Shown one piece after another: positions 43,400 to 61,843 of a stretch of DNA of 64,000 nucleotides. Position 1 is the first letter of the stretch. Every line of letters starts with the position of its first letter. The notes under the pieces are model-generated. The model did no database searches and was not told where the DNA came from. It was given only the letters and a program-made list of their open reading frames with translations. The position numbers were made by a program, and so were the translations under genes. Origin of the DNA: Methanotrichaceae archaeon (lineage in GTDB: Archaea > Halobacteriota > Methanosarcinia > Methanotrichales > Methanotrichaceae); assembly GCA_963803145.1 (NCBI GenBank), contig CAWDLW010000023.1, positions 1 through 64,000 on the forward strand, in the 5' to 3' direction.

Positions 43400-43565
43400 T
43401 TAAAACTCAGTTTCTAAACTCTCCTGATAAAAATCAACCTTGACAGGATCTGCAGAAGCTAGCTAACGATAAAGATATTAGAGGTCTGACAGTATTGTCA
43501 CGGTGGGATATTGTTGAGGCATACCTGATTGCTGATTGATAGCGTTTTCGGGATTATCAACCTAA

Positions 43566-44746
43566 CTATATAAGTTTCTCCTTTCCAATTTTTCGACTTT
43601 TTCCAATAATTTCCGCCTCAAGCGTCGGATCAAGCTTAAAAGCATTACTGGCCGCTACTATGAATTCTTCTTTGCGACCCAATTTAGCAAATATAATTGC
43701 TTTATTTACCCATGCTATTGCATTTTTTGGATTAAGTGCAATAGCTTTTTCAAATATAACTAATGCTTTTTCATAATTCTTTAATTCAAGTAGGGCAGCT
43801 CCCATATAATTCCATACATCTACATCGTTAGGATCCAATTCTATTCCCTTGTTAGATGCTTCCAAAGCTTCCGTATGCTTGTCGATCATACTGAAGGCAA
43901 GACATAAATTTTTCCATGCATCTTTCATCTTTGGATTAATTTCAGTTGCCCTTTGAAAAGATATTATACCCTCTTCGTATTTGCCTAATGTAGCTAAGGA
44001 TGAACCTTTATTAAGCCAGGCAAGTTCATTCCCAGAATCCAACTCTATGGCTTTTTCAGAAGCTTGCAAAGCTTCAGCATGCCTATAAAGGCCACCTAAT
44101 GCAGAACTTTTGTTAGTCCAAGCTATAGAATCCCTCGGATCTAATCTAATCGCTTTTTCTGCAGCTTTTAGAGCTTCTTTTGATTTACCTAATCGTTCTA
44201 ATGAATTACTCAAATTGCTCCAAGCCATAGCATTATTAGGATCAGATTTAACTGCCGTTTTATAAGCTTCCAGAGCATCTATATCGTTTCCTGTATCACT
44301 TAGCATTGAACCCTTAATAGTCCATAGCTGGGATTCCTTCGGGTCTAATTCTATTGCTCTGCTAACAGCTTTTAAAGCTTCCTCGTTTCTACCTAACTTG
44401 GCAAGAGCAGTACCTTTATTAGCCCAGGCCATGGCATTTCTGGAATCTAATCCTATAGCTTTTTCAGAAGCCTGCAAAGCTTCAGCATGCCTACCCAGGA
44501 TACCTAAAGCATAAGCTTTTTTATCCCATTCAAATTCATCATGAGACTCCGATTTAGCGGCATTCACTGACGGGTTCAGCCCTTCTGCAATTACACCAAA
44601 TGCAGAATCCATTCTTTCTAATTCTAGCGCAAATTCTTGATTTAATTCCATAGTTTTTTTAAAAGCTTCAAGCATTTCATTATTTTTATTGAAATAGTGC
44701 GCCGATAAAGCTAATAATCCCCAAGCTATAGAGAATTTGGGATCTA
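43566..44746 (-). pseudogene. TPR-repeat protein, 5'-truncated by IS630
   Basis: Repeated AW.NKG..L..LG..EEAL...KAI.LDP; TPR frame (IDPKFSIAW) continues to the IS junction. Confidence 0.8.
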
Positions 44747-45829
44747 TAGTTAATCCACGTAATTTTTACCTCATAGATACCCTTAAATAATTAATATACG
44801 ATATAGCCGTTCATGGGCAGGAAACCTGTAATTGTAAGACATATCTCGAAGGTAGAATTAGATCAATTGTATAAAGATGAGAGAAACATAAGAATTAAAG
44901 AACGGCTACTAGCGATAATACATTTATACGAAGGAAAGAATGTATATATAGTAGCTGATATTCTTAAACGAAGTGAAAAGACAATAAAGAATTGGCTAAG
45001 CGATTGGAACAAACAAGGATATGATGGATTGATACCACAGAATAGAAACGGCAAAGAACCAATGATATCTTTTGATGAATGGGATAAAATTATCGAAGAG
45101 ATTGAGGACAAAGGAATGACTATAAAAGAGGTAATAAAATATGCAAAAGACACAAGAGGCGTAGAATATTCGTATAAAGGTGGTTGGAAGATTTTAAGAT
45201 CAATAAAGAAAGTCAAATATGGTAAACCATATATTAGAAATAATAAGAGGCCTGTTAATGCAGAAAGTTTTCTAAAAAAAGGATAGATTCAGTAATAACA
45301 ACAGTCAAAGAACCTATTATTGGATTCCTTGATGAAAGCTCTTTGCAACAGCGACCTAATACACGCAGGGTTTTAAACACCCATATGCTAAATTATCAAC
45401 CTGGAAAAGTTAGGTCTAGAACTGTTTTTGGGTTCATTGCATTGAATGGAAATGATGAAGTTATGGTCTCTCACTCATCCAAGAAAGAAGATTTAATGAT
45501 CTTCGCCCAAAAATTGAGAAGTAACAATATTATGAGACCAATATGTATTGTCCTAGATAATGCTAGAATACATCTAGCTAAGAAGTTTAGGGCATTAGCC
45601 CACGAACTTGATATCCATTTAATATATAACGTGCCATATTCCCCTGATTTAAATCCTATAGAGTTCGGTTGGAAGGATTTTAAAAGAGAGATATCAAAAT
45701 ATACTGATTTTGATGAAGCTATTGAGGATGCCCAAGATTGCGCTTTACAAATATTTTATTCCAATAAAGATGGATACTCTAAGTCTTGGATAAAGCAGTT
45801 TATAAGGTAAAAAGTTGGGAGAATGACTA
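44747..45829 (+). mobile_element. IS630-family element, copy 1
   Basis: Imperfect TIR TAGTTAATCCACGTAATTTTTAC / GTAAAAAGTTGGGAGAATGACTA, TA on both sides. Confidence 0.9.
44813..45810 (+). CDS. IS630 transposase split in two frames (-1 slip at A7 run ~45274)
   Basis: HTH ORF 44813-45286; -1 frame carries FLDES, LDNA, YSPDLNPIE. Confidence 0.85.
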
Positions 45830-45881
45830 TAGTCATCCCAAACTCAGATCAGGATAAAGCTTTTGAACTGTAGCCTCTTGA

Positions 45882-45940
45882 AGCCCGCGCGGCGACTGAG
45901 CGCGCTATCGTCACCGTTAGTATTAGCCCCAGAAGGAAGT
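45882..45940 (+). repeat. Structured repeat copy A (3' half only; 5' leader 45830-45881 shared with copy E)
   Basis: agcccgcgcggcgactgagcgcgctatcgtcaccgttagtattagccccagaaggaagt. Confidence 0.9.
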
Positions 45941-45990
45941 GTCAGCTCTAAATACATTGGCTGGCCCAAATGTGAAGTCAAAACAGTTCC

Positions 45991-46489
45991 TTATTCTCCT
46001 GCAAGCTTCAGAACAGCTTTTCGTGTCTGCTTCGCCAGGCGAAAGCCTAATTCCTGGAGCCTATCGATAGATGGTTCAACTGCTTCCAGGTGCCCCGCAC
46101 GTTTTGCATCCAGCAGTAATCCCAGTGTACCTCTAATAGGTATTCCTTTTGCAGTGGCAATGCGCCGAGCCAGCGCATCATCCAGAAGCGGGAGGGCTTC
46201 CCGGCATTTCAAGCGCCAGCATCAGTACCTGGGATTCACCAGGTCCGAGATCTGTTATTAGGGGCTCTGCTTTTGCGCTGACAGGCACTTGGATCTTGAC
46301 CCAGCTTAGATTCTCCAGCTTTGGCAGGTCTAATCCTTTTGCGATGCCTGCATCCAGTTCAGCTCGGACGGAAGGAGGGACAATAATAGATCCAACAAGG
46401 GCTGGAAGAATCCTCAATTGACCTATCTGATGCAGATATTGCAGTGGCGATGTATTGCAGATGACCTTGGGCAGGGCTTTTTTAGGCAA
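45991..46489 (-). pseudogene. DUF3368-type PIN toxin, frameshifted
   Basis: VICNTSPLQYL...LGPGE in one frame, LLDDALARR..GTLGLL in the next. Confidence 0.85.
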
Positions 46490-46733
46490 GGCTGGTCTCC
46501 GCCTTGAGATCTTCTTCCGTCAAGCGGAAAGTGTCCACGCCATACTTTGCCAGGTTAGCCAAGAATATCGTTCGTGGAACTCCTGCCAGCTTTGCAGCTG
46601 CACCCGAGGATAATTTTCCAAGTTCAAAGAGCTTTACAGCAGCAGCTAATCTCAACTCCTTTCCGAGTTCATCCGGAGACATCTTCATCGCTAACAAGGC
46701 ATCATCCGGAACTTGCAAGACTATCTCGCTCAT
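46482..46733 (-). CDS. UPF0175-family antitoxin
   Basis: AVKLFELGKLSSGAAAKLAGV; overlaps toxin start. Confidence 0.85.
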   Translation of the reverse strand: MSEIVLQVPDDALLAMKMSPDELGKELRLAAAVKLFELGKLSSGAAAKLAGVPRTIFLANLAKYGVDTFRLTEEDLKAETSLA

Positions 46734-46858
46734 ACGATCTAATCTCTTTTCATTGCTATTGTATTTTTGCATCTAGCTTTGTGGTTGATAGTTCATCCTT
46801 TGTTTATAATTACAGCCTGATATCCGACAAATGCAGAATAGTTTATCCTGTCTCAGTT

Positions 46859-46965
46859 AACCTTGTCGGCTGTTTCGAGAGACTTCCCCCAGCGAGGGGT
46901 TAGGGGCAGCCCGCGCGGCGATTGAGCGCGCTAGTAAACCGCTAGTGTTAGCCCCAGAAGGAAGT
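46859..46965 (+). repeat. Structured repeat copy B
   Basis: aacct...acttcccccagcgaggggttaggggcagcccgcgcggcgattgagcgcgctagtaaaccgctagtgttagccccagaaggaagt. Confidence 0.92.
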
Positions 46966-47218
46966 ATAAGGATCTTGAATTGTCATAGGCCATAGGAAAG
47001 ATTGAAATGTGCGTTGTCTTAGGTGAACGAGCACTTTCTGAAGAAGAGATTATATAGATAGGGATTATTTATTGTATCAAAGTTATAGGCGAGGCTGTAA
47101 ATCCTAATCGAAGCATATAATTACTAAATAGTGTGCAATAAAGGCATTTGCTGAGAAAATCACATTATGGTCATTGGTGTCCACCAAACACAATGGCTCA
47201 GAGTTTAAGCGAGGCCTC

Positions 47219-47404
47219 TCAAGGATTCTCGCTTTTCTCTGATAATCTCTTTCGAAGAATAAGCCTAGCACCTTCTTCAAATACGTGTGAAATATTTCTA
47301 AATTCACCAGCAGCTACGGCCTCTTCAGCTGCTTTATACGTTTCAGGGCTTATACTAACGCTGAATTTTTTTGTGGGCATCGCTAAAAACAATGCTGCGC
47401 CCAT
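47219..47404 (-). CDS. Ribbon-helix-helix (CopG-like) protein
   Basis: KKFSVSISPE...GEFRNISHVFEEG. Confidence 0.75.
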   Translation of the reverse strand: MGAALFLAMPTKKFSVSISPETYKAAEEAVAAGEFRNISHVFEEGARLILRKRLSEKSENP

Positions 47405-47480
47405 CTAAATAGTTTTCTCACCGAGTATTACCAACAACCTTAAATAGAAATATGACCAGGTATTATTTTGGTGGACATCA

Positions 47481-47705
47481 ATGAATGGAAAGACCCATCT
47501 AGAGGAAGCTATCCTTGTCTCTCAGATCAGGGAATCAATTGCACAGAAGTTGATTGGAAAGTATTCAACAACTTTTCTATACAGGATCGAAATTATCTGG
47601 CCCTGTTCAATATTAATCCAGATCGTTGAAAATAGTTTTCTGAATACCCTAACGACGAATGTCCTAGGCTCCTCTCAGGATATTCCAGAAGCAGAGGCGG
47701 TCTAA
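47481..47705 (+). CDS. Hypothetical protein
   Basis: GGTGG SD-like motif upstream; stop abuts next ATG; no family recognised. Confidence 0.35.
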   Translation: MNGKTHLEEAILVSQIRESIAQKLIGKYSTTFLYRIEIIWPCSILIQIVENSFLNTLTTNVLGSSQDIPEAEAV

Positions 47706-48284
47706 ATGCCCTCCCCAAACAATCCCGAAAGCGCCGTTCCGCTAGCAATCGATCCAGCAACCACATCCATATTATCAGAGCTGACCACATCACTAGCCGA
47801 ACTTCAGCCCCTCGCCCCCAAGATCGCCGATCTGAAAAATGAAACCCTGGAAAAAGAAGCCGCAATCCTGAAAGCAATCCTGGAGAAGCTCACGCATCTG
47901 GTGCCTCTGCTGAGCGAAGACTGCGAGCAATGTTACCGCCGTGAGATTGTCATCCTGACCGATGAGGAGAGAGTTCAGCTTGATGATTTTGGCTTTTTCA
48001 GCGAGCACAGGCTGATTCTCTACGAGAACGGCCTGCTGGTGAGGACTCACCGCTATGGCCAATCTATGGATCATGGCCAATCAATGGAAGCTTCACACGT
48101 AGGATGGGAGAACACCGATGAGGATGTGCTTACTCCTGAGGCGGCTATAATCGCATTCGGTTTCACGGCCATTTCACAGGGCTTGACAAAGGCTCTTGAA
48201 GAGGCATCATCGATGGCTGCACTCAAAGAGATGCTTGAAGAAGATGTAGCGGCTTTAACTAAGGCATTGGAGGCTCTATTATAG
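47706..48284 (+). CDS. Hypothetical protein (paralog of 54491-55075)
   Basis: 192-aa ORF conserved in two copies, CEQC motif, helical termini. Confidence 0.8.
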   Translation: MPSPNNPESAVPLAIDPATTSILSELTTSLAELQPLAPKIADLKNETLEKEAAILKAILEKLTHLVPLLSEDCEQCYRREIVILTDEERVQLDDFGFFSEHRLILYENGLLVRTHRYGQSMDHGQSMEASHVGWENTDEDVLTPEAAIIAFGFTAISQGLTKALEEASSMAALKEMLEEDVAALTKALEALL

Positions 48285-48496
48285 GCAGCTGCTGACCTGA
48301 TGGCAGGAACCACAAGCATTCGATTGCATCGAGCGAGACCGTCCATAGCTAATAGTAATTGCCTCCACTCGAAAGCTTCAAAATTTTAGCGTTCTCATAG
48401 GCCGCATCATACATCTCAGCTTGATCATATTCTCATACTTGCAAAATCATTATATGGGTTGAATGGGATAAATGGGTAAAAGAGTTGATTGAAAGG

Positions 48497-48760
48497 ATGC
48501 CGCTTGCCAAAATGGATGACCGGGGGAGGCTGCAGCTTCCCAGCGACCTAAGGCATAAAATGAAGCTCAAAGAGGGCGACGAATTTGTTGCAGAGAAGCT
48601 TGGAGAGGATACGATTCTTCTAAAGAAGATTAACATAAGAGCACTGCTGGAAGATGCAATAGAAAAGGCTAAATCCGTAGATCTTGACAAGCTGGAAAAA
48701 GAGATTGAGGAGGAAAGCAACCAGCTTGCCCGAAAGATGTACAAGGTATCTTCTAGATAA
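48497..48760 (+). CDS. AbrB/MazE-family antitoxin
   Basis: AKMDDRGRLQLPSDLRHKMKLKEGDE. Confidence 0.88.
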   Translation: MPLAKMDDRGRLQLPSDLRHKMKLKEGDEFVAEKLGEDTILLKKINIRALLEDAIEKAKSVDLDKLEKEIEEESNQLARKMYKVSSR

Positions 48761-49166
48761 TACCCTCTTTATTGCCGCAGTCAAGAAGGGCTGGACTAAG
48801 AGCACTGAACTAATCTATACTCTTCTAGATAGCCCAGTGGAATTATTTGCCAATAAGCTCCTTATTTTCGAATACGAGAAATATGCCAGCGCCCTTCATA
48901 CCTATGAACTTTTAGAGCACTTGAAGAAGACTATGATTTTGGTAAATCCTTCTCAGGAAGAAGTCGATGTATGTGCAGCGTTCTTTCCTGAAAACGAGCT
49001 ATCGGATATAGTTCACGCAGCTACTTGTCTTTCAGTTGGTGCAATCCTAATCACCAATGATAACCATTTCAATAAAATTAAAGAAGCTAGGTTGATTGAG
49101 GCCTGGAGCATGACAAAGGCGATAAAGCGGCTTCTAGGAGAAGATAAGGATTATGAAGACAATTAG
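48726..49166 (+). CDS. PIN-domain (VapC-like) toxin
   Basis: YLLDNT, EY, DIVHAATC, LITNDNHF. Confidence 0.85.
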   Translation: MPERCTRYLLDNTLFIAAVKKGWTKSTELIYTLLDSPVELFANKLLIFEYEKYASALHTYELLEHLKKTMILVNPSQEEVDVCAAFFPENELSDIVHAATCLSVGAILITNDNHFNKIKEARLIEAWSMTKAIKRLLGEDKDYEDN

Positions 49167-49188
49167 CACATGATAGTTCTTGAAACAT

Positions 49189-49440
49189 TTAGGCAAGGCT
49201 TGCCTCCGCCTTGAGATCTTCTTCCGTTAGGCGAAAAGTATCCACGCCATAGTTTGCCAGGCTGGCCAGGAATATCGTTCGTGGAACTCCTGCAAGCTTT
49301 GCAGCCGCACCGGAGGATAGTTTTCCAAGTTCAAAGAGCTTTGCAGCTGCAGCTAATCTCAACTCCTTTCCGAACTCGTCTGGAGACATCTTCATAGCCA
49401 ATAAGGCATCATCCGGAACTTGTAAGACTATCTCGCTCAT
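49189..49440 (-). CDS. UPF0175-family antitoxin, orphan copy
   Basis: Near-identical to 46482-46733; partner toxin absent after TTGCCTAAA. Confidence 0.82.
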   Translation of the reverse strand: MSEIVLQVPDDALLAMKMSPDEFGKELRLAAAAKLFELGKLSSGAAAKLAGVPRTIFLASLANYGVDTFRLTEEDLKAEASLA

Positions 49441-49560
49441 ACGATCTAACCTCTCTTTATGGCTATTGTATTTTTGCATATAGCTTTGTGGTTGATAGTT
49501 CATCTTTTGTTTAACAGCCAGATATCCTACAAATACAGAACCGCCCATCAGGTCTCTGTT

Positions 49561-49668
49561 AACCTAATTGCCTGTTTCGAGAGACTTCCCCCAGCGAGGG
49601 GTTAGGGGTAGCCCGCGCAGCGACTGAGCGCGCTATCGTCACCGTTAGTATTACCCTCAGAAGGAAGT
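49561..49668 (+). repeat. Structured repeat copy C
   Basis: Full copy with ggggta/taccct variant. Confidence 0.92.
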
Positions 49669-49932
49669 ATAATGCTTTTGAATTTAATAGCAGACCTAAG
49701 CACTGAACCAATTAGCACTGAACCAATTATTCCATGATCGATCGTAAGAGAAGCCCATCAGGGTGAATATAGTAAATGAATGCGGACTAAGGAAGATGAT
49801 TTGGGATTAAGTACTTAGTGAGACGGTAGCCATAAGATAATGCAATCAGATAGATCTGAGGTATATTAGTACTCTTACTGAGGCATAATAAATGCAGCAA
49901 TCTCTTCATCCCTGAAGGCAACTATAATTCCG

Positions 49933-50234
49933 ATGGATAAATTCGAAGCCCTGAGAGAAAAAGTGCTAGTTAGCTCAGGCCATACGTTAAACGCAATTGC
50001 CGTTTTCGGCTCCTTCGCCCGAGATGAAGAGACCCGAAGAGAGCGATATAGATCTAATGGTCGAGCTGAAGCCGCGAGAGCTGGCCCATGCTTGGGCTTG
50101 AAGTGTTTGGCCTGGAAGAAGAGCTGAGCCGAATCCTGGGCAGAGATGTAGAATTGGTGACAGAGCGGGCTCTTAGCCCTTATATAAAGCCGTATGCAGA
50201 GATGGATATGGTTATGCTCTATGAAGAAGGATGA
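49933..50234 (+). pseudogene. Minimal nucleotidyltransferase (MNT) antitoxin, frameshifted
   Basis: AVFGSFAR, DIDLMVE and LGRDVELVT spread over frames. Confidence 0.82.
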
Positions 50235-50265
50235 TTATGTATATCTTCGCCATATACTCGATTCA
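50221..50265 (+). pseudogene. HEPN/DUF86 N-terminal remnant
   Basis: MKKDDYVYLRHILDS overlapping MNT end, then truncated. Confidence 0.6.
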
Positions 50266-50422
50266 GGCTTAGAATGGGTCGACCCATTTCCATCGATTGG
50301 CGGGGCTTCGATTACGGTCTCCATAGGGCCGGTTTCGATTGTCTAAGCTCATCATCATAACAAGGTTATCATAGAACATTTTCACCTAGACTTTAAATAA
50401 TAAGAATCCATAGGTAGTATCT

Positions 50423-50605
50423 ATGTGTGAGAGTTTGGAGCGCAAGACTATAACTCCCCAACTTCCCTACGATCAGGAAGAGCCAGGTGAGGATGAGGAG
50501 ATCACCCTTGCACTTATGAAGCTCTCAGCTCTATCACTGCAGGATTTCTTAGAGAGCGAACCAGATATCTATACGGACGATGATCTTAAAGTCAGATACC
50601 GATGA
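50423..50605 (+). CDS. Putative antitoxin
   Basis: Acidic tail LQDFLESEPDIYTDDDLK; ATGA overlap with MazF-like gene. Confidence 0.7.
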   Translation: MCESLERKTITPQLPYDQEEPGEDEEITLALMKLSALSLQDFLESEPDIYTDDDLKVRYR

Positions 50606-50949
50606 AAGGTGATATCGTCCTTGTTCCTTTCCCAAACTCCGATTTGAGTACATGGAAGCGTAGGCCAGCGTTAATCCTTTATGAAGATCTTATAGAAAAT
50701 GAGACTACAATTGCTTACGTATCATCGCGTATCCCTATAATCCCAGCTTCTAGCGATATTCTGATAACAAGAGGAACGCGGTCTTTTAATGAGTCTGGCT
50801 TAAAGTGGAACTCAGTTATAAAATTAAATAAGATAGCTGCTATTAAAACCCATTTTATTGCCGGATTGCTTGGTGTTGCGGATGAAACCTTGAAGGCTGA
50901 AGTTAATAGGGCATTGGATGCTTGCTTAAAGTTTCCAGCAAAATTGTAA
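50602..50949 (+). CDS. MazF/PemK-family toxin
   Basis: KGDIVLVPFPNSD...KRRPAL, GLKWNSVI. Confidence 0.88.
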   Translation: MKGDIVLVPFPNSDLSTWKRRPALILYEDLIENETTIAYVSSRIPIIPASSDILITRGTRSFNESGLKWNSVIKLNKIAAIKTHFIAGLLGVADETLKAEVNRALDACLKFPAKL

Positions 50950-50957
50950 GGTTCTAT

Positions 50958-51224
50958 TTAGCTCCGGGCATACTCCAGATCCACTTCCAGCTCCGTCTCT
51001 CCATAATGGCGCTTGATCTTACGATGACCTAGAAGTTCCTCGAATTGCAAGCGTGCCAAGCCACTCAGTGCTGCAGCTTTGCCGGAAGAAAGCACTCCAT
51101 GCTGGTAAAGAGCCAAAGCTAGCTCTTTGTAAAGCTCTGCTTCAACATCATCAGGGGGAACTCTGAGGGCGTTTGCTACGTCTTCGGGAATCTTCAATGT
51201 GGGGGCACCCATGAATTTATGCAC
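50958..51224 (-). CDS. UPF0175-family antitoxin (second subtype, orphan)
   Basis: ELALALYQHGVLSSGKAAALSGL. Confidence 0.82.
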   Translation of the reverse strand: MHKFMGAPTLKIPEDVANALRVPPDDVEAELYKELALALYQHGVLSSGKAAALSGLARLQFEELLGHRKIKRHYGETELEVDLEYARS

Positions 51225-51397
51225 CTCTTCATAATTCTCGCTCGGATTATTTTTTAAGCTTTGGGAACAATAATAACAAGATTGGATTCGACCTAGAGCT
51301 TTAAGTCGGATGTGACACGTAGAAGGGCGTTAAAATACGATGGAATCACCATCAATTCCGCCATAGACATAAGAATAATGAATACTGTTATTCTACT

Positions 51398-51784
51398 ATG
51401 AAAATCAAACTGACAAGTGTATTTGTAGACGACCAAGGCAAGGCTCTCAAGTTTTATACAGAGGTCTTGGGCTTTGTTAAGAAATCGGATGTTACAGCAG
51501 GGAAATACAGATGGTTAACGGTTGTTTCGCCTGAAGAGCAAGACGGTGCCCAGTTACTTCTTGAGCCTAAGGATAATCCTGCGGCAAAATCCTACCAGGA
51601 ATCTATTTTCAAGCAAGGTATTCCCGCCGCTATGTTCTTCGTTGATGATATTCAGAAAGAGTATCAGAGACTGAAGAGACTTGGAGTGAAATTCACAATG
51701 GAGCCGACAAAAACACCCGGCTCGACTATTGTCGTGTTTGATGATACCAGCGGAAACCTGATACAGTTAGCTCAGCTTGGGTAG
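51398..51784 (+). CDS. VOC/glyoxalase family protein
   Basis: VDDQGKALKFYTEVLGF, FFVDDI, DDTSGNLIQL. Confidence 0.9.
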   Translation: MKIKLTSVFVDDQGKALKFYTEVLGFVKKSDVTAGKYRWLTVVSPEEQDGAQLLLEPKDNPAAKSYQESIFKQGIPAAMFFVDDIQKEYQRLKRLGVKFTMEPTKTPGSTIVVFDDTSGNLIQLAQLG

Positions 51785-51893
51785 GATTTCACAGATAACG
51801 TCAGCGTGACAAAGTTGATCCTTTGAGGGTTATCAGTTTAGGCATTGCCGCAGCCGATCTATCCTGCAAATCAAGGGACCTGGGCAACGAAGA

Positions 51894-52127
51894 CTAGACG
51901 AGATAGGAACCGATAACAAATTCATGTAGAGTATATTTCCCTTTTTCGCTTTCAAAGGGAATAATCAGGTATTTTCATTTTTCAATTCTCTCGATGTATC
52001 CTCGCTTCTCCAATCTTGTGAGCATTATTTTCAATGTGCTTTTATCAATCCGAGTCTTTTGATACATTTGGTCAATTGAAAATATCTTGCTCCCTTTTGC
52101 CATAGATTTGAGATCCTTAATAGCCAT
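51894..52127 (-). pseudogene. AbiEi-like (type IV TA antitoxin) N-terminal remnant
   Basis: KIFSIDQ...LTRLEKRGYIERIEK*KYLIIP...KGKYTLHEFVIGSYLV*; internal stop at 51975-51977. Confidence 0.65.
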
Positions 52128-52240
52128 GCAACCCACTGTCTTGATTTTCCCCTTTAATACACCAAAGTTATCATAATGTTAATTTTGGTGTATACAAGGG
52201 GGAATCTTGTGAATTCAAATGAATATAACTCCTCTCAATC

Positions 52241-52350
52241 AACCTAATAGCACGCGTTTTCGAAACCTTCCCCCAGCGAGGGGTTAGGGGTAACCTGCCC
52301 GGCGACTGAGGGCGCTAGTAAAACCCCTAGTGTTAGCCCCGGAAGAAATT
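52241..52350 (+). repeat. Structured repeat copy D
   Basis: Full copy with gccc/gggc compensatory inner stem. Confidence 0.9.
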
Positions 52351-52422
52351 GCAAGGCTTCTAAGATATATTAGTCAGCCCAAACTCAGATCAGAATAAAG
52401 CTTTTGAACTGTAGCCGCTTGA

Positions 52423-52481
52423 AGCCAGCGCGGCGATTGAGCGCGCTATCGTCACCGTCAGTTTTAGCCCCAGAAGGAAGT
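52423..52481 (+). repeat. Structured repeat copy E (3' half; leader 52371-52422 matches 45830-45881)
   Basis: agccagcgcggcgattgagcgcgctatcgtcaccgtcagttttagccccagaaggaagt. Confidence 0.9.
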
Positions 52482-52751
52482 TTATTGCCTTTGAATTTAA
52501 TAGCAGGCCCAAGCACTGAACTAATTTTTCCACGATCGATCGTAAGAGAAGGTCATCAATGTGAATATAGTAAATGAACGCGGACTAAGGAAGATGTTTT
52601 GGGATTGAGTACTGAGTGAGACGATAGCTATACGGTAATGCAAATTTAAGTAGATAGAATGCAAGCAGATAGATCAGAGGTATATCAGCACTCTTACTGA
52701 GGCGCAACAAATGCAGCAATTTCTTCATTCCTGAAGGCAACTATAATTCCG

Positions 52752-53062
52752 ATGGATAAATTCGAAGCCCTAAGAGAAAAAGTGCTGCCTTTGCTCAGGC
52801 CATACGTTAAACGCAATTGCCGTTTTCGGCTCCTTCGCCCGAGGTGATGAGACTCCAGAGCGATATAGATCTAATGGTTGAGCTGAAGCCGCGAGAGCAG
52901 CGCCCATGCTTGGGCTTGAAGTGGTTTGGCCTGGAAGAAGAGTTGAGCCGAATACTGGGCAGAGATGTAGAATTGGTGACAGAGGGCGCTCTTAGCCCTT
53001 ATATAAAACCGTATTCAGAGAGGAATATGGTTATGCTCTATGAAGAGCCTCAAAGCTTTTAG
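52752..53062 (+). pseudogene. MNT antitoxin, frameshifted second copy
   Basis: Homologous to 49933-50234, including ~250 bp upstream. Confidence 0.82.
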
Positions 53063-53168
53063 CGTTCTCATAGGCCGTATCATACAGCTCAGCCTGATCT
53101 TATTCTCATGCCCTGCAAAATCGTTATATGGGATGAATGGGTTAAATGGGTAATGGAGTGATTGAAGA

Positions 53169-53432
53169 ATGCCGCTCGCCAAAATGGATGATCGCGGGAG
53201 GTTGCAGCTTCCCAGCGATCTGAGGCATAAGATGAAGCTCAAAGAGGGCGACGAATTTGTTGCAGAGAAGCTTGGAGAGGATACGATTATCCTTAAAAAG
53301 ATTAACATAAGAGCGCTGCTTGAAGATGCGATAGAAAAGGCTAAATTCGTGGATCTTGACAAGCTGGAAAAAGAGATCGAGGAGGAGAGCAACCAGCTTG
53401 CCCGAAAGATGTACAAGGTATCTTCTAGATAA
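53169..53432 (+). CDS. AbrB/MazE-family antitoxin, copy 2
   Basis: Near-identical to 48497-48760. Confidence 0.88.
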   Translation: MPLAKMDDRGRLQLPSDLRHKMKLKEGDEFVAEKLGEDTIILKKINIRALLEDAIEKAKFVDLDKLEKEIEEESNQLARKMYKVSSR

Positions 53433-53838
53433 CACCCTCTTTATTGCTGCTGTCAAGAAGGGATGGACTAAGAGCACTGAGCTTGTCTATGCTCTTCTAG
53501 ATAGCCCAGTAGAATTATTCGCCAATAAGCTCCTTATTTTCGAATACGAGAAATATGCCAGCGCCCTTCATACCTATGATCTCTTGAATCACTTGAAGAG
53601 GACTATGATTTTGGTCAATCCTTCTCAGGAAGAAGTCGATGCATGTGCAGCGTTCTTTCCTGAAAACGAGCTATCTGACATAGTTCACGCAGCTACTTGT
53701 CTTTCAGTTGGTGCAATCCTAATCACCAATGATAACCATTTCAATAGGATTAGAGAAGCTAGGTTGATCGAGGTCTGGAGCATGACAAAGGCGATAAAGC
53801 GGCTTTTAGAAGATGATAAAGATTTTGAAGATAGTTAA
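53398..53838 (+). CDS. PIN-domain toxin, copy 2
   Basis: Near-identical to 48726-49166. Confidence 0.85.
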   Translation: MPERCTRYLLDNTLFIAAVKKGWTKSTELVYALLDSPVELFANKLLIFEYEKYASALHTYDLLNHLKRTMILVNPSQEEVDACAAFFPENELSDIVHAATCLSVGAILITNDNHFNRIREARLIEVWSMTKAIKRLLEDDKDFEDS

Positions 53839-53930
53839 GTATACGATTGCCCTTGAGATGATTTCTTTATCCGATACAGTTTCTTATTCTGTTATAATTC
53901 TATGAGCCAAATCGTCCATCTGCCTCAATC

Positions 53931-54040
53931 AACCTTATAGCATGCGTTTTCAAAACCTTCCCCCAGCGAGGGGTTAGGGGCAGCCCGCGCGGCGACTGAG
54001 CGCGCTAGTAAACCGCTAGTATTAGCCCCAGAAAGTAAGT
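53931..54040 (+). repeat. Structured repeat copy F
   Basis: Full copy. Confidence 0.92.
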
Positions 54041-54137
54041 ATGAGGCCCTTGAATCATTGGACCCGATATGGTTATCTTTAAGAGCGACAAAAATTTTAT
54101 TGCATCTCAACTCACCAAGAAGAGATGCAGGGTGGGC

Positions 54138-54320
54138 TTATGCCTGCCCTTTAAACTTGACACCATGCTTTTCCAAATATTCGCGTATCGCCTTCTCTGC
54201 AACCTCTGAAACTCCTCTCATTTGCCCTGTAGATTCGAAGGCGAATTTTCTCAACGCCGCGGCCACTTCTGGTGATAACGATATATTCATTTTAGTTGGC
54301 GTTTTTCTCTCAGGCTCCAT
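54138..54320 (-). CDS. Ribbon-helix-helix protein
   Basis: TKMNISLSPEVAAALRK...VSEVAEKAIREYL. Confidence 0.78.
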   Translation of the reverse strand: MEPERKTPTKMNISLSPEVAAALRKFAFESTGQMRGVSEVAEKAIREYLEKHGVKFKGQA

Positions 54321-54490
54321 GCTTGTTATATGTCTAAATCTTTAACTATTAACCTTTTATCATATTAAGCCACTTAGGAAGAAAAAGAGTTAAATATCTT
54401 ACTCTCCTATTAGGTCATTGGTGAGTTGAGATGATTGGAAGAACAATTTTTGAGAGCGGTTTAGAGACCTTAGCATCGGAGGCGGTCTAA

Positions 54491-55075
54491 ATGCCCTCCC
54501 TACTCCACCCCGAAAACTCCGTCCAGACAGCAGCCGATCCAATAGACACAATAGCGACCGATCCAGCAACCACATCCATGTTATCAGAGCTGACTGCATC
54601 ACTAGCCGAACTTTGGCCCCTCACCTTCAATATCATCGATCTGCAAAAGCAAACCCTGGAGAAAGAAGCCTCCATCCTAAAAGCAATCGTGGAGAAGGCC
54701 ACGCCTCTGGTGCCTCTGCTGTGTGAAGACTGTGAGCAATGTTACCGCCGTGAGATTGTCATCCTGGCCAGAGAGGAGAGAGTGCAGCTTGATGATTTCG
54801 GCTTTTTCAGCGAGCACAGGCTGATTCTCTACGAGAACGGCCTGCTGGCAAGAACTCATCGCTATGGCCAATCAATGAAAGATCTGAATTTTGGATGTGA
54901 GAACACCGATGAGGATGTGCTTACACCTGAGTCTGCTATAACCACATTCGGCTTCACGGCAATTTCAAAGGGCTTGATGAGGATTCTTGGAGATGCGTCA
55001 TCGATGGCTGTACTCAAAGAGGAGCTAGAAGGCAGGCTTGCGGCTTTAGCTGAGGCATTGGAGGCTCTACGATAA
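54491..55075 (+). CDS. Hypothetical protein (paralog of 47706-48284)
   Basis: GGAGG SD; colinear homology. Confidence 0.8.
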   Translation: MPSLLHPENSVQTAADPIDTIATDPATTSMLSELTASLAELWPLTFNIIDLQKQTLEKEASILKAIVEKATPLVPLLCEDCEQCYRREIVILAREERVQLDDFGFFSEHRLILYENGLLARTHRYGQSMKDLNFGCENTDEDVLTPESAITTFGFTAISKGLMRILGDASSMAVLKEELEGRLAALAEALEALR

Positions 55076-55101
55076 AGGGATTAGCTAATCTTATTTTATT
55101 C

Positions 55102-55212
55102 AACCTTACAGCATATATTTTCCCGAACCTTCTCCCGAAAAGGGGCTGGGGGTTGCTCGCATGGCGACTAAGCGCGCTAGAATAACCGTTAGTATTAGCC
55201 CCAGAAGAAAAT
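55102..55212 (+). repeat. Structured repeat copy G (diverged)
   Basis: aacct...ccttctcccgaaaaggggctgggggttgctcgcatggcgactaagcgcgctagaataaccgttagtattagccccagaag. Confidence 0.85.
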
Positions 55213-55381
55213 GCAGTCTCTCTAATTACAATGAATTTAGCCAAAAGCAAAGTTAGAGACATTCTTTTATGTATACTCTTGAATTTAAATTTCTTGAAGA
55301 ACGCTATCTTTTGCCTGTTGCTCACATGCCGGGAAGTTCCAATAGCATCAATCTGGATGAACCGGCAATGGTTCGATGCCT

Positions 55382-55880
55382 TTATTCTCCTGCAAGCTTC
55401 AGAACAGCTTCTCGTGTCTGCTTCGCCAGGCGGAAGCCTAATTCCTGGAGCCTATCAATAGATGGTTCAACTGCTTCCAGGTGCCCCGCACGTTTTGCAT
55501 CCAGCAATAATCCCAGTGTACCTCTAATAGGTATTACTTTTGCAGTGGCAATGCGCCGAGCCAGTGCATCATCCAGAAGCGGGAGGGCTTCCCGGCATTT
55601 CAAGCGCCAGCATCAGTACCTGGGATTCACCAGGTCCGAGATCTGTTATTAGGGGCTCTGCTTTTGCGCTGACAGGCACTTGGATCTTGACCCAGCTTAG
55701 ATTCTCCAGCTTTGGCAGGTCTAATCCTTTTGCGATGCCTGCATCCAGTTCAGCTCGGACGGAAGGAGGGACAATAATAGATCCAACAAGGGCTGGAAGA
55801 ATCCTCAATTGACCTATCTGATGCAGATATTGCAGTGGCGATGTATTGCAGATGACCTTGGGCAGGGCTTTTTTAGGCAA
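55382..55880 (-). pseudogene. DUF3368-type PIN toxin, frameshifted, copy 2
   Basis: Near-identical to 45991-46489 with the same frameshift. Confidence 0.85.
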
Positions 55881-56124
55881 GGCTTGCCTCCGCCTTGAGA
55901 TCTTCTTCCGTTAGGCGAAAAGTATCCACGCCATAGTTCGCCAGGCTGGCCAGGAATACCGTTCGTGGAACTCCTGCCAGCTTTGCAGCTGCACCGGAGG
56001 ATAATTTTCCAAGTTCAAAGAGCTTTACAGCAGCAGCTAATCTCAACTCCTTTCCGAGTTCATCCGGAGACATCTTCATCGCTAACAAGGCATCATCCGG
56101 AACTTGCAAGACTATCTCGCTCAT
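55873..56124 (-). CDS. UPF0175-family antitoxin, copy 3
   Basis: Near-identical to 46482-46733. Confidence 0.85.
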   Translation of the reverse strand: MSEIVLQVPDDALLAMKMSPDELGKELRLAAAVKLFELGKLSSGAAAKLAGVPRTVFLASLANYGVDTFRLTEEDLKAEASLA

Positions 56125-56248
56125 ACGATCTAATCTTTCGTTATGGCTATTGTATTTTTGCATATAGCTTTGTGGTTGATAGTTCATCTTTTGTTTATAA
56201 TTACAGCCAGATATCATGCAAGTGCATAACCGCTCATTCAGTTACGTC

Positions 56249-56356
56249 AACCTTATCGCCTGTTTCGAGGGACTTCCCCGTAGAGGGGTTAGGGGCAGCC
56301 CGCGCGGCTTCTCTCGCGCGCTGGAATAGCCGTTAGTGTTAGCCCCAGAAGAAGGT
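56249..56356 (+). repeat. Structured repeat copy H
   Basis: Full copy; loops changed (gtaga, gcttctct) while stems are kept. Confidence 0.9.
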
Positions 56357-56440
56357 GAAGCTTTTGAATTATTTCATTCAGCTCCAAAAACAAAGTAAGG
56401 ACGATTCTCCAATACACTCTTGTGATCTCTTAGCCTGTGC

Positions 56441-56686
56441 TCATACTACCTTGAATGCCACGCCCACCGCCTGGAACTCTGATGTATCCTGGCGCTCAAG
56501 CTTCGATTTGATCCCCTCGAATCTCCTTACGGTCTCCTGAGAGTACAATCTCTCGCCGCACCTGAGACATACCTCGGCACATACTTTCAGGACCGCTGTA
56601 TTTACGCCGCCCCGAATTACCTTTTCTACTTCCTTCTCCACTAGACTACCGCCACAAACAGGGCATCTCTCGAAAGACGTCATCAT
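56441..56686 (-). CDS. YgiT-type zinc-finger protein
   Basis: CPVCGG...AEVCLRCGERLYS. Confidence 0.85.
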   Translation of the reverse strand: MMTSFERCPVCGGSLVEKEVEKVIRGGVNTAVLKVCAEVCLRCGERLYSQETVRRFEGIKSKLERQDTSEFQAVGVAFKVV

Positions 56687-56696
56687 TCAACCCTAT

Positions 56697-56752
56697 AGAT
56701 CCTCCTCCAGCTCCATTTCTCAATAATGGCACTAGATCTTATGATGACCTAC
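56697..56752 (-). pseudogene. 3' fragment of UPF0175 subtype-2 gene
   Basis: Resembles 50976-51031 (agatcc..tccagctcc..tct..ataatggc.ct.gatctta.gatgaccta). Confidence 0.55.
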
Positions 56753-56864
56753 ATGAATCGCTCCGAATACTTTTCACAGGCCGGAGTATATAAAGTCAAT
56801 CATTTCAAGATTATACGCAATTTGCGCAAAGTCTTTTATCATCTTCAATAGATAATCTGATAAT

Positions 56865-57059
56865 ATGGAGACAAAGGAATTGATTCATCGAGAGATCGAG
56901 GCTTTCCCTGAGCCCTATCTCGAAGAAGTGCTAGACTTTATACACTTTTTAAAGGATAAGGCAATGAAAAAGAGAATGGAAGCTGCGATTCTAAGTGAGT
57001 CAGTTCTTGCCAGGGATTGGCTGAGTCCAGAGGAGGATGAAGCTTGGAAAAATTTATAA
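56865..57059 (+). CDS. DUF2281-like antitoxin
   Basis: PEPYLEEVLDFIHFLK...SESVLARDWLSPEEDEAW. Confidence 0.82.
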   Translation: METKELIHREIEAFPEPYLEEVLDFIHFLKDKAMKKRMEAAILSESVLARDWLSPEEDEAWKNL

Positions 57060-57376
57060 AAGGAGATATAGTTGTACTTCCCTTTCCGTTCTCAGACTTG
57101 ACTGAGGCGAAAAGGCGTCCTGCTCTAGTACTCGCAGAACTTGATGGGACCGATAGAATTCTTTGCCAGATAACGAGCCAGAATTTCGAAGACAGATACG
57201 CTGTTTCAATAGATGAATTAGACTTCGAAGAGGGCTCCCTTAGAAAAAGAAGCAATGTTAGACCGAATCGAATATTCACTGCGGATAGCAAGATAATTCT
57301 GTATAAAGCAGGCCATATCAAATCCAGTAAGATAGATGAAGTCGTGAATAGAATAATCGAAATCTTGACCCGCTAA
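57044..57376 (+). CDS. MazF/PemK-family toxin
   Basis: KGDIVVLPFPFSDL..AKRRPALV, CQITS. Confidence 0.9.
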   Translation: MEKFIKGDIVVLPFPFSDLTEAKRRPALVLAELDGTDRILCQITSQNFEDRYAVSIDELDFEEGSLRKRSNVRPNRIFTADSKIILYKAGHIKSSKIDEVVNRIIEILTR

Positions 57377-57435
57377 TCTGCATTGCTGCTTTCCACGATC
57401 TCAATATCCTCATTCGCTATCTACATGTCCCACTC

Positions 57436-57546
57436 AACCTCGTAACCTGCATTTCGAAAATCCTCCCCCAGCGAGGGGTTAGGGGCAGCCTGCGCGGGCG
57501 TTGGAGCGCGCTATCGTCACCGTTAGTTTTAGCCCCAGAAGGAAGT
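57436..57546 (+). repeat. Structured repeat copy I
   Basis: Full copy. Confidence 0.9.
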
Positions 57547-57593
57547 GTTAGCTTTTAAATTATGTAATTAGCCATAATCCAAATCTGAGCGGA

Positions 57594-58037
57594 CTATGTA
57601 TCTGCTTGTATCTTCAGAAATTCCTCTATTGCATCTATAAACTGATCAAAATCGTCGATATTATCTATCAGGATGGAAAATGCAACTTTATCATCGATTT
57701 TTCCATACCTGTGAACAACTATATTTCTGAATCCCTTCATCTTTCGGATCTTACCACTAATCTCCTCAGTCAAAATACCTTTTTTTGCCAGGCTCTCCAC
57801 TATTCCTTCCTCACTCTCGGGCATCTCCAATCTCAGATCAGAGTTAATGATGGCGCAAATATCGATCACATTCTCGACTGCAAATTCTGCCCTCTTGTAG
57901 ATACCATCTTTAACTAGCCCTAGCCTTGAAAACTCCTCGAAGCTCTGTGGAAGATGAGATCTTACCAACTCTATGCTATCCTCTATCTCAGTCATCTTAT
58001 CTCTGATGAGATCAACTCTGAGGCCCTTCTTTCTCAT
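57594..58037 (-). CDS. HEPN/DUF86 (HepT-like) RNase toxin
   Basis: FRNIVVHRY Rx4H motif. Confidence 0.9.
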   Translation of the reverse strand: MRKKGLRVDLIRDKMTEIEDSIELVRSHLPQSFEEFSRLGLVKDGIYKRAEFAVENVIDICAIINSDLRLEMPESEEGIVESLAKKGILTEEISGKIRKMKGFRNIVVHRYGKIDDKVAFSILIDNIDDFDQFIDAIEEFLKIQADT

Positions 58038-60761: not shown

Positions 60762-61843
60762 TAGTCAATTTTGCATCTAACTTCCTAATAGAAAACCTTA
60801 ATATTCAAGGCGTTAAATTATAGCTGATGGGAAGAAAACCTAAAGTCATAAAACATATCTCAAAAGAAGAGCTAGAAGACCTATATAGAAAAGAAAAAGA
60901 TCCAAGAATTAAAGAGAGGCTGTTAGCGATAATTCATCTTTATGAAAAGAAAAACATTTACGAAGTTCAGGACATTTTGAAAAAGAGCGATCGAACTATC
61001 AAGGATTGGTTAAGTAGATGGAATAATAAAGGCTATGAAGGACTAATACCAGGAAGCGGAGGTGGCGTTGAACCGAGGATACCTTCTCAGGAATGGGATA
61101 ATATTATTAAAGAGATTGAAGGTAAAGGGATGACTATCAGAGATGTTATGGTTTATGTCAAGACTACGAGAGGTGTAGACTATTCTTATAACACGACGTG
61201 GAAAATTTTAAGAGTGGATAAAGGAGTTAAGTATGGGAAACCCTATATTAAAAATGAGAAAAGACCAGAATATGCGGAAAAAATTTTAAAAAAGAATAGA
61301 TTGCGTGTTATCAACAGTCACTGATCCCATTGTGGGTTTTCTAGATGAGAGTTCATTGCAACAAAATCCCAATAAAAGACGAGTGATAAACACTCCTGTG
61401 ATAAAATATGATCAAGGCAGAAAGAGATCTAAGACTATATTCGGTTTTATGGCTATAAATGGCAACGATGCAGTCATGCTATCTGATTCGTCTAAGGCAG
61501 AAGATATGATTAGTTTTATCCAAGTAATAAGAACAGCTAACATTATGAAGCCAATATGTCTCCTGCTCGATAATGCAAAGATACATCTGGCAAAAACAGT
61601 TAGGATATTAGCTCAAGAATTGGATATCCACTTTATCTACTTGCCCCCATATTCGCCAGATTTGAATCCTATTGAGTTTGGATGGAAAGATTTGAAAAGA
61701 GATTTGAGTAAATTCCTTAATTTTGATGAGGCTATCGAAATGAGTGAAGAGTGTGCCCTAAAAATTATATATTTCAGGAAAGATGGATACTCTAGGCATG
61801 TGATAAATAAGGTTTTTAGTGAAGAAAGTTAGGAGATTGACTA
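60762..61843 (+). mobile_element. IS630-family element, copy 2 (diverged)
   Basis: TIR TAGTCAAT../..ATTGACTA, TA on both sides. Confidence 0.9.
60827..61832 (+). CDS. IS630 transposase split in two frames (slip at TTTTAAAAAAG ~61284)
   Basis: HTH ORF plus FLDES/LDNA/YSPDLNPIE ORF. Confidence 0.85.

Follow-up and report, generated by a model that had tools for sequence, protein, structure and literature searches.

A co-oriented repeat with a covarying hairpin lies between reshuffled toxin-antitoxin cassettes in a Methanotrichaceae archaeon

The 64,000-nucleotide stretch analysed here (contig CAWDLW010000023.1 of a Methanotrichaceae archaeon, forward strand; hereafter the window) contains an array of small, toxin-antitoxin-rich gene cassettes between copies of an intergenic repeat, which we term R. 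The repeat has a three-part anatomy with a conserved centre and a covarying hairpin, its copies within an array face the same way, the modules between them recur in reshuffled order, some copies are chimeric, and the family is distributed within one clade of the Methanotrichaceae. We propose, tentatively, that R may act at the level of DNA, strand-specifically, as a junction or recombination site in an integron-like system of cassettes peculiar to that clade.

Copies and anatomy of R

Repeat finding, alignment and nhmmer placed seven full copies of R and two 3' halves between 45.88 and 57.56 kb of the window, all on the + strand. A profile built from the seven full copies gave nine matches in the 64 kb (45881-45949, 46847-46981, 49550-49684, 52229-52365, 52422-52497, 53920-54055, 55090-55227, 56239-56370 and 57424-57561), whose E values (1e-17 to 1e-39) rule out chance, and no further match outside 45.88-57.56 kb. 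The two short matches are 3' halves (window-profile positions 64-139). An earlier note on this DNA, made from the sequence alone, had described seven full and two half copies on one strand at these places, and the profile search, with the E values just given, bears it out. The length of about 108 bp that it gave for the unit has to be revised: 60 full genomic copies, aligned together with the sequence on either side, yielded a conserved core of ~131 nt (TCAACC...GAATTAT), preceded by a weakly conserved extension of ~40 nt and followed in most copies by a linker of ~70 nt. Its description of all copies as intergenic holds for open reading frames (ORFs) with a family match, none of which overlaps R; a few unsupported ORFs of at most 123 aa do overlap.

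R consists of a variable left arm (positions ~1-30), a strongly conserved centre (~31-77) and a variable right part, after which the linker begins. The centre, 90-100% conserved across copies, contains a CCCC/GGGG hairpin, the invariant run GAGGGGTTAGGGG and a hairpin with a covarying stem and a conserved 9-nt loop. In the consensus, the ends of R form a weak, interrupted inverted match (TCAA..AGCC against GGCT..TTGA). Half copies repeat the 3' unit in tandem, each beginning at about position 55 with a linker in front of it, and a full copy followed by one or two halves was found at 11 places in the genome.

One hairpin of R covaries

The earlier note had proposed a covarying multi-stem fold, interpreted as a selected single-stranded structure. 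When the five helices of that fold were scored on 59 copies (7 from the window and 52 from two other metagenome-assembled genomes (MAGs)), 92.4% of cells paired, compared with 40-49% when partners were slid. Two-sided changes were concentrated in one hairpin, that with the CGCGC/GCGCG stem, in which pair 69-87 is CG in 50 copies and UA in 8, and pair 70-86 is GC in 37, CG in 8, AU in 6 and something else in 8; stem variants include CGCCC/GGGCG, CGTCC/GGACG, CGTGC/GCACG and CGCAC/GTGCG. The 9-nt loop of this hairpin, GGCGAYTGA, is conserved, and the CCCC/GGGG hairpin is nearly invariant. Single variants described earlier are indeed present, namely GGGGT..ACCCT in the copy at 49561, GCCC/GGGC in that at 52241, CGCGCG/CGCGCG with another loop in that at 56249 and a GAAA loop in that at 55102.

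In a duplex test, the half-helices of 64 own-genome copies (profile alignment, 5000 permutations) were paired with cognate or non-cognate partners. The covarying hairpin reached -8.03 kcal/mol with cognate against -5.65 with non-cognate halves (0/5000 permutations), and the CCCC/GGGG hairpin gave 1/5000 with a tiny effect. No gain over permutation was found for the GGGGC/GCCCC stem (1341/5000), the CTAG/CTAG stem (1047/5000), the outer stem (2160/5000) or the arm-tail pairings (975, 446 and 490 of 5000); the negative controls gave 338/5000 and 2116/5000. Unaided, RNAalifold recovered two hairpins and a local GGG/CCC pairing and nothing more. Minimum free energies were no better than those of dinucleotide shuffles on either strand (z of -0.57 to +1.30 for + and -0.69 to +1.76 for -, seven copies each), and the minimum-free-energy folds differed from copy to copy.

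Among 22 distinct copies from other genera, both-sided changes affected 15 of the 22 pairs (slid controls: 1-7); this alignment was fitted to the model and therefore leans towards structure. Some of these copies keep the GGGGT/ACCCC closing helix around an unrelated hairpin that replaces the CTAG hairpin. Wobble pairs favour the + strand, as had been noted before, and the effect is real but modest: for instance, pair 62-112 is CG in 36 and UG in 19, pair 94-103 is GU in 34 and GC in 12, and the covarying hairpin has about 15 G-U cells compared with about 5 A-C cells. Since T-G wobbles are tolerated in single-stranded DNA too, this strand bias does not single out RNA.

In larger alignments, on which the earlier note had made its interpretation depend, covariation is significant for one helix only. 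Of the multi-stem fold, one hairpin stands (0/5000) and the CCCC/GGGG hairpin is marginal, whereas the other stems fail within the genus and overall stability is at the level of shuffles; selection for a single-stranded structure is likewise upheld for one hairpin and its conserved surroundings, and not for the whole fold. For the covarying hairpin and the invariant sequence around it, the structural claim is solid.

Distribution and age of R

The host genome (4.13 Mb in 51 contigs, 99% complete, 6.8% contamination) holds 123 matches to R, 64 of them full-length, with 64 on the + and 59 on the - strand. Locally the orientation is far less even: neighbouring matches less than 5 kb apart lie on the same strand in 55 cases and on opposite strands in 12, the 55 including full + half pairs of single elements, and each of four arrays (9, 8, 11 and 11 matches) is wholly on one strand.

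An 18-letter exact pattern from the centre was found in 54 stretches of five Methanotrichaceae/Methanosaeta MAGs; it also gave single matches in unrelated bacteria (n=23), about the chance expectation in 596 Gb. With a covariance model, relatives of R were detected in 12 of 61 Methanotrichaceae genomes, the own genome included. There were at least 56, 46 and at least 56 matches per genome in the genus of the window, 14 and 13 in a second genus, and elsewhere 9, 6 and then singles. By BLAST, 16 genomes from two further families of the class had none.

No known family matches R, and it is not a tRNA, in line with the earlier note. Rfam 15 gave 0 matches in the window at gathering thresholds; at E up to 5 over 52150-54200 it gave two chance-level matches, both outside R; in 12 related loci it gave RNase P RNA alone; and a tRNA/tmRNA scan of the window was empty. 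Scattering across the genome, which the earlier note had named as a sign against its interpretation, is evident from the 123 matches, but it comes with no match to a known family and with no target-site duplication at the one locus compared. A description of the R family was not found in the open-access papers searched; the supplementary lists of PMC9668308 and PMC11602168 might include these loci.

R copies have a mean identity of 0.759 to one another within the genome and of 0.769 to those of another MAG; for 30 of the 64 full own-genome copies the nearest neighbour lies in another genome; copies less than 20 kb apart are slightly more alike (0.783 vs 0.757). Judged from these identities, the copies are old, with no recent burst and weak homogenization. 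That copies so diverged have a 90-100% conserved centre and a compensated stem points to selection on the centre in many of them.

Reshuffled modules and chimeric repeats

Comparison of the array with itself resolved the successive blocks A, X+B, C, A', D, E, D', C', Y+B', A'' and F, with an R at about 12 of the roughly 16 junctions between blocks. Cassette A (45991-46964) matches 55382-56354 at 93.75% identity, and 46481-46988 matches 49188-49690 (cassette A') at 87%; cassette C (48371-49159) matches 53042-53831 at 91.5%; and 49610-50227 matches 52423-53046 at 86%, the match beginning within R. The left and right flanks of a given R have different paralogues. A-type R copies have a peculiar left arm in common and nothing more, and the D/D' copies share only the 3' half.

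A sister-species array (G002:C4:21-28 kb) has the cassettes F, X+B and Y+B in common with the window, in another order. Block 46883-48283 (X+B) recurs there at 85% identity behind a different cassette, block 56249-57541 (cassette F) recurs at G002:C4:21192-22486 at 90% identity, and block 54061-54454 recurs together with B. In the sister species, F is followed by one R and then by X+B, whereas the R of F in the window is followed by a HepT gene. This R of the sister species is a chimera: on the left, flank and arm match the window copy at 57436, and the CTAG/CTAG hairpin region, the tail and the flank on the right match that at 46859, which places the switch between about positions 30 and 78 of R. 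Within the own genome, 13 pairs of R with homologous far-left flanks have a left-arm identity of 0.835, compared with 0.677 in other pairs, while identity is not raised in the centre (0.876 vs 0.873) or in the covarying hairpin (0.818 vs 0.818).

In one public sample, contigs pass straight from 52422 to 56297, the two sides measuring 126-154 and 202 nt, and this joint is an alternative cassette order in a related population. The contigs were short and tended to end at R; other contig joints between R copies are mostly short-sided and may stem from other copies, so that the 52422-56297 joint alone was used. At an orthologous locus in three species, one species has R with its linker, the second has the upstream extension and the first 13 nt only, and the third has a 1.39-kb gene instead of R; one filled-versus-unfilled comparison, at one locus, revealed no target-site duplication. 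An array beside a PHP gene is orthologous in two species and differs in size. A paralogous empty site, with the flanks joined without R, was found for none of the 64 full copies. In an all-against-all BLAST, 36 of 420 alignment ends fall inside R, but alignment ends track the conservation profile of R itself, so that the histogram of break points is uninformative.

The cargo of the window comprises three UPF0175/DUF3368 PIN-like modules (one of which lacks the toxin), two modules of AbrB/MazE and PIN, two PemK/MazF genes, an MqsA/YgiT-like zinc finger, a DUF2281/VapB-like protein, an MNT fragment, a glyoxalase-type protein and two members of a family that we call B. Three other arrays carry HepT/MNT, PIN/DUF2281, ParE, HicA/UPF0150 and DUF4258/DUF2283, as well as glycosyltransferases, acylphosphatase-like genes, epimerase fragments and insertion sequences. 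By crude ORF calls, the neighbouring gene on the 5' side of R is on the opposite strand in 37 cases and on the same strand in 36, and that on the 3' side in 48 and 27. Because genes lie on either strand relative to R, a fixed role in a 5' or 3' untranslated region is unlikely.

A possible cassette-exchange site

If R is the junction site proposed above, exchange between the conserved centres of two copies would excise, insert and reorder modules. Either a putative enzyme of site-specific action would recognize the centre in the form of a folded + strand, or the ~20-25 identical bases would seed homologous recombination. After exchange, the left arm would stay with the left module and the right part with the right module. 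Insertion of a circle through R keeps direction, which would account for co-orientation, and addictive toxin-antitoxin modules would guard the arrays against deletion. We infer that recombination at R may cause the reshuffling, that a single strand may be its substrate and that an enzyme may be involved. A bolder version, which we regard as doubtful, is an undescribed, IntI-independent system of cassette capture and shuffling with a 131-nt site, in which a 45-nt centre folded on one strand would be the crossover, a putative recombinase or nuclease would read the covarying hairpin and the fixed loop, and toxin-antitoxin and defence modules would be the cargo.

Several observations weigh against the proposal. 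Four of the ~16 junctions in the window lack an R (48279-48370, 49160-49188, ~50228 and 53042-53046), and in the sister species no R stands directly before block Y. Break points are spread over the left arm and centre, the start of the half copy (~position 55) and the 3' end. A precise site-specific reaction accounts for such scattered break points and R-less junctions no better, and perhaps less well, than exchange of a homologous or illegitimate kind. In a segment-linkage test, odd and even columns of one segment correlate at only 0.20-0.22, a low noise ceiling, and no excised circles were observed. Moreover, 59 of the 123 genomic matches are not full-length, many being truncated or decayed, and 32 of the 56 clusters of R are single matches outside arrays. 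No recombinase gene is a regular neighbour of the arrays: no integrase adjoins them in the window or at six other array or cluster loci, and only two tyrosine-recombinase genes, one truncated on contig C12 and one on C33, lie within 5 kb of an R, which may be coincidence.

Alternative readings of R

R might also be a selfish, non-autonomous repeat, of the kind of a miniature transposable element with inverted repeats (MITE), a repetitive extragenic palindromic (REP) sequence or a BOX element, spread to further places between genes by a transposase encoded elsewhere; the reshuffling would then be a by-product of ordinary recombination in toxin-antitoxin islands. The high copy number, the intergenic location, the many truncated or decayed copies and the many lone ones suit such a repeat. 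So do the modular build with the 3' unit and linker in tandem at 11 places, the weakly inverted ends, the presence and absence at an orthologous locus, the clade-restricted distribution, a further small element nested in R and the inverted 5' module at the far end of a related ~290-nt element (both described below). We nevertheless consider this explanation somewhat unlikely. A target-site duplication is absent in the one filled-versus-unfilled comparison. No autonomous element has the ends of R, those of the IS200, IS4-like and IS630-like insertion sequences being unrelated (IS110 and TnpB-only elements were not compared), and the Y1 transposase is confined to the IS200 copies. The copies are diverged (mean identity 0.76) and mixed between species, unlike the near-identical burst of active MITEs; their local co-orientation (55 vs 12) is not expected from random insertion; and the centre, not the ends, is most conserved. 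The two explanations overlap, as a selfish repeat can also be a substrate for reshuffling.

R might instead act as RNA, either as a cis element in long array transcripts (for processing, stabilization or protein binding) or as a family of small non-coding RNA (ncRNA) genes, with the conserved loop as a binding site. The hairpin with its compensatory stem changes and conserved 9-nt loop, the G-U wobbles on the + strand and a centre that is conserved across genera while its surroundings change are what such a role would lead one to expect, and arrays whose copies all face one way would suit one long transcript. The loop pattern GGC-GA-YU-GA beside the stem also loosely resembles a K-loop, by a rule that several copies break. 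However, R has no Rfam match even at E up to 5, folds no better than shuffles on either strand, stands in no constant position relative to the orientation or boundaries of adjacent genes, shows no conserved promoter, and is present in more than 100 copies, many of them decayed. An RNA role therefore seems to us improbable, a shade more so than a selfish origin. Of the possibilities listed in the earlier note (recombination site, ncRNA, REP-like element and single-stranded DNA priming site), the evidence leans towards those at the level of DNA, a recombination junction or a dispersed REP-like repeat, rather than towards RNA.

A reading of R as attC, in arrays of the classical integron type with no integrase nearby (clusters of attC sites lacking integrases, CALINs), is largely refuted and very improbable: co-oriented ~130-nt sites between small toxin-antitoxin-rich cassettes and a glyoxalase do recall sedentary chromosomal integrons, and the main text of PMC9668308 reports archaeal integrons and CALINs, but the 99% complete genome has no IntI (best TIGR02249 match 48.8 bits against a cut-off of 265), the two attC boxes occur together in 0 of 64 copies, R is no simple imperfect palindrome and its arm-tail pairing lacks covariation, exchange points lie in the centre and not at the 3' end, and the strings 'Methanos' and 'Methanot' have 0 occurrences in that main text, on which the supplementary list may bear. 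The IntI search covered the whole genome in six frames and gave 18 weak matches; 14 control genomes also stayed below the cut-off, with no positive control. For the boxes of the attC consensus, RYYYAAC (R'') was found at the 5' end of 7/64 full copies and GTTRRRY (R') in the tail of 1/64; the earlier note had likewise not recognized R as attC.

An IS200/IS605-derived palindrome-associated transposable element (PATE) was also considered and rejected, the IS200 ends being unrelated to R. TnpB genes occur in or near some arrays, but IS110 and IS630 do likewise, and we regard them as island clutter.

Comparison with known systems

As in integrons, especially sedentary chromosomal ones with homogeneous attC sites such as the Vibrio VCRs, co-oriented structured sites of ~60-140 nt stand between small cassettes, a likeness that extends to CALINs, the archaeal ones reported in PMC9668308 among them. 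Toxin-antitoxin-rich cassettes, varying order, arrays without an adjacent integrase and one strand favoured for folding are further points in common; among archaeal CALINs and integrons, toxin-antitoxin proteins are the top functional class of cassette proteins with predicted function (10.5%), according to the same main text. The R arrays differ in lacking IntI and the R''/R' boxes, in a site that is not a two-armed imperfect palindrome, in a centre that is most conserved and to which exchange maps rather than to the 3' end, in many lone copies outside arrays and in tandem half copies.

REP sequences of bacteria, together with bacterial interspersed mosaic elements (BIMEs) and REP doublets forming hairpins (REPINs), come with REP-associated tyrosine transposases (RAYTs) of the Y1 HUH type. 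R resembles REP and REPIN in being dispersed and intergenic, with GC-rich hairpins that are long maintained, at least 100 copies, and clade and strand specificity; unlike them it is about four times longer, multi-part and archaeal, with no RAYT-like gene flanked by R. No RAYT-like single-copy Y1 gene stands beside R, the PF01797 matches being three identical IS200 copies and one broken copy. With BOX of Streptococcus pneumoniae, enterobacterial repetitive intergenic consensus (ERIC) and Correia elements R shares a modular build in which an internal or 3' unit varies in number, as well as predicted hairpins and an intergenic location; BOX is not known to delimit reshuffled cassettes in co-oriented arrays, and a sequence relation to R is not to be expected. 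The pdif modules of Acinetobacter plasmids are likewise small, carry resistance genes or, often, toxin-antitoxin pairs, and are bounded by short recombination sites (for Xer) in varying contexts, but pdif sites are 28 bp long and alternate in orientation, whereas R is ~131 nt long and co-oriented; no dif-like 11-6-11 site was recognized in R, although no formal search was made. MITEs, as outlined in the survey PMC11602168, are like R in size, copy number, intergenic location, nesting and clade specificity, and unlike it as regards the weakly inverted ends, the lack of a target duplication (one locus) and of a parent insertion sequence, the old, diverged copies and the strong co-orientation of R.

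R falls outside each of the known families for which membership could be tested. By analogy, the R arrays would work like a sedentary chromosomal integron or CALIN and be built like modular dispersed repeats such as BOX and REP. Archaea of the Methanothrix type count among Earth's main methane producers, and the movement of their accessory genes is little known. If R is a site of cassette exchange, it would represent a second, integron-independent way of stockpiling and reordering small genes, in Archaea, and exchange at R would point to an enzyme that reads a folded single strand. Even if it is merely selfish, R remains of use: the repeat family is large, old and specific to a clade, and its hairpin is under selection. 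It flags variable islands of toxin-antitoxin and defence genes, breaks assemblies of these genomes and can be used for strain typing and for locating accessory gene pools.

Organization of the array in the window

All R copies below are on the + strand and were located by nhmmer. The array begins behind an IS630-like insertion sequence (44745-45831, +; helix-turn-helix ORF 44813-45286 and DDE_3 ORF 45343-45810 by Pfam, ends from 16 genomic copies), which sits at a TA within the linker preceding the first half copy. To its right, 45834-45881 equals the linker at 52375-52422. The R 3' half that follows (45880-45953, profile positions 53-126) has the linker remnant 45834-45879 before it, and 45830-45940 is 94% identical to 52371-52481. 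Cassette A (45991-46855, -) encodes a UPF0175 antitoxin (46482-46772) and a DUF3368 PIN-like toxin in two overlapping ORFs (45991-46212 and 46178-46489), assigned by Pfam, and is followed by a full R (46857-46983; E 2.8e-39, Infernal 126.4 bits). Next come cassette X+B (46990-48284, +), with small ORFs and a 192-aa B-family member (47706-48284) and without a family match, and cassette C (48371-49166, +; Pfam), with an AbrB/MazE-like antitoxin (48485-48760) and a PIN toxin (48684-49166), which is joined to its neighbours without R. Cassette A' (49189-49548, -; Pfam) holds a UPF0175 antitoxin alone and precedes a full R (49559-49686; E 5.9e-39, 117.5 bits).

Cassettes D and E (49690-52230, both strands) contain small ORFs without assignment and, by Pfam, a PemK/MazF toxin (50602-50949, +), UPF0175 (50958-51224, -) and a glyoxalase/bleomycin-resistance-type protein (51398-51784, +). 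Behind them lie a full R (52239-52369; E 4.4e-38, 125.2 bits), its linker (52370-52420) and an R 3' half (52421-52497, profile positions 53-128), a tandem repeat of the 3' unit; this pattern of full copy, linker and half over 52239-52497 was seen at 10 other places in the genome. Cassettes D' and C' (52498-53838, +; Pfam, NCBIfam and homology blocks) comprise an MNT-like nucleotidyltransferase fragment (52817-53062), an AbrB/MazE-like gene (53169-53432) and PIN (53356-53838). In the next full R (53929-54059; E 1.9e-39), the CCCC/GGGG hairpin is at 53961-53973 and the covarying hairpin at 53986-54004.

Cassette Y+B' (54061-55075, +) encodes a 194-aa B-family protein (54491-55075), and 24 nt past its stop codon begins a full R (55100-55230; E 5.2e-34, 118.7 bits), the most divergent of the seven, with a linker-like stretch to ~55300. 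Cassette A'' (55382-56217, -) is the second UPF0175 and split DUF3368 pair, and the full R behind it (56247-56373; E 3.1e-32) has a 6-bp CGCGCG stem and a different loop. Cassette F (56374-57433, both strands; Pfam/NCBIfam) consists of an MqsA/YgiT-type zinc-finger antitoxin-like gene (56441-56686, -), a DUF2281/VapB-like gene (56865-57059, +) and PemK/MazF (57044-57376, +). The final R of the array (57434-57564; E 1.6e-37, 119.8 bits) is full, and just past it lies a gene for a HepT-like (HEPN) toxin (57594-58037, -; Pfam PF01934, E 7.3e-28).

In the two copies of cassette A (45991-46489 and 55382-55880, - strand), the DUF3368 toxin gene is broken into overlapping ORFs of 73 and 103 aa, whereas unsplit ORFs of 157-179 aa occur in other arrays (L088:10264-10737 and L089:19147-19686); a shared frameshift, or possibly a programmed one, could explain the split. 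The B family (192-194 aa; 47706-48284 and 54491-55075 in the window) has no Pfam or NCBIfam match. Six-frame searches gave 23 matches in this genome, where the family also occurs on contigs C8, C15, C43, C45, C20, C16, C18 and C51 (G000), 20 in one sister species and 1 in the other. R follows B in the same orientation in 9 of the 17 paralogues examined and is inverted in one more. A small ORF (47481-47705) abuts the start of B, which may be half of an unrecognized two-gene module. The B-family protein was rejected as a candidate enzyme of R, as one genome (G001) has at least 46 R and 1 B match, and two others (G011 and G023) have 14 and 13 R-like matches and 0 B.

Upstream of the array (window region 38317-44675), two diverged genes for IS4-like transposases (38317-39741, -; 41941-43386, +) enclose one for a KAP-family P-loop NTPase (39880-41511), and a TPR protein gene (43566-44675, -) stands directly upstream of the array. 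An apparent link of the IS4-like end (AACCTTA...) to the start of R, with a string like the R tail beside the insertion sequence, was dismissed as chance, no R being present there. The IS630-like element occurs twice in the window (44745-45831 and 60827-61832) and is ~80% identical to a commoner genomic version; there are ~30 genomic copies, 100% identical over 336-340 nt of the compared end, and two copies sit in the linker beside an R.

Related elements elsewhere in the genome

At 432-434 kb of contig C8 (L088:5064-8253), R and the 5' part of an NAD-dependent epimerase gene stand three times in tandem, with two truncated fragments (63 and 118 aa) and a full 309-aa gene, which suggests unequal exchange at R that duplicated gene starts.

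A MITE-like element of ~290 nt, here called type 2, consists of the 5' module and centre of R followed by a hairpin CGCGCG-AGATCNNCAGA-CGCGCG, and ends in the inverted 5' module. It was found at C9:4341-4634, on C38 and C17, at C15:396896-397000 and 399639-399741, on C25 and at C23:205873. One type 2 copy lies ~70 nt from an RNase P RNA gene. Archaeal RNase P RNA is itself present on three contigs in near-identical surroundings (C9:3971-4272, C38:46774-47075 and C17:254302-254603), which probably reflects assembly redundancy or a strain mixture, fitting the 6.8% contamination.

Both this genome and another MAG have a small element with the motif AAGCCGC..TCCGCAGGCGGAA..GTAAG that is nested in R immediately past the covarying hairpin (C8:500637-500875; loci L015, L026, L033, L034 and L059). 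It has no Rfam match, and a group II intron was rejected as its identity, with no intron RNA family in 12 loci. Finally, a 617-nt IS200, with a Y1 transposase only and GC-rich hairpins at both ends, is present in three identical copies (C13:56916-57532, C15 and C33) and a fourth, broken one.

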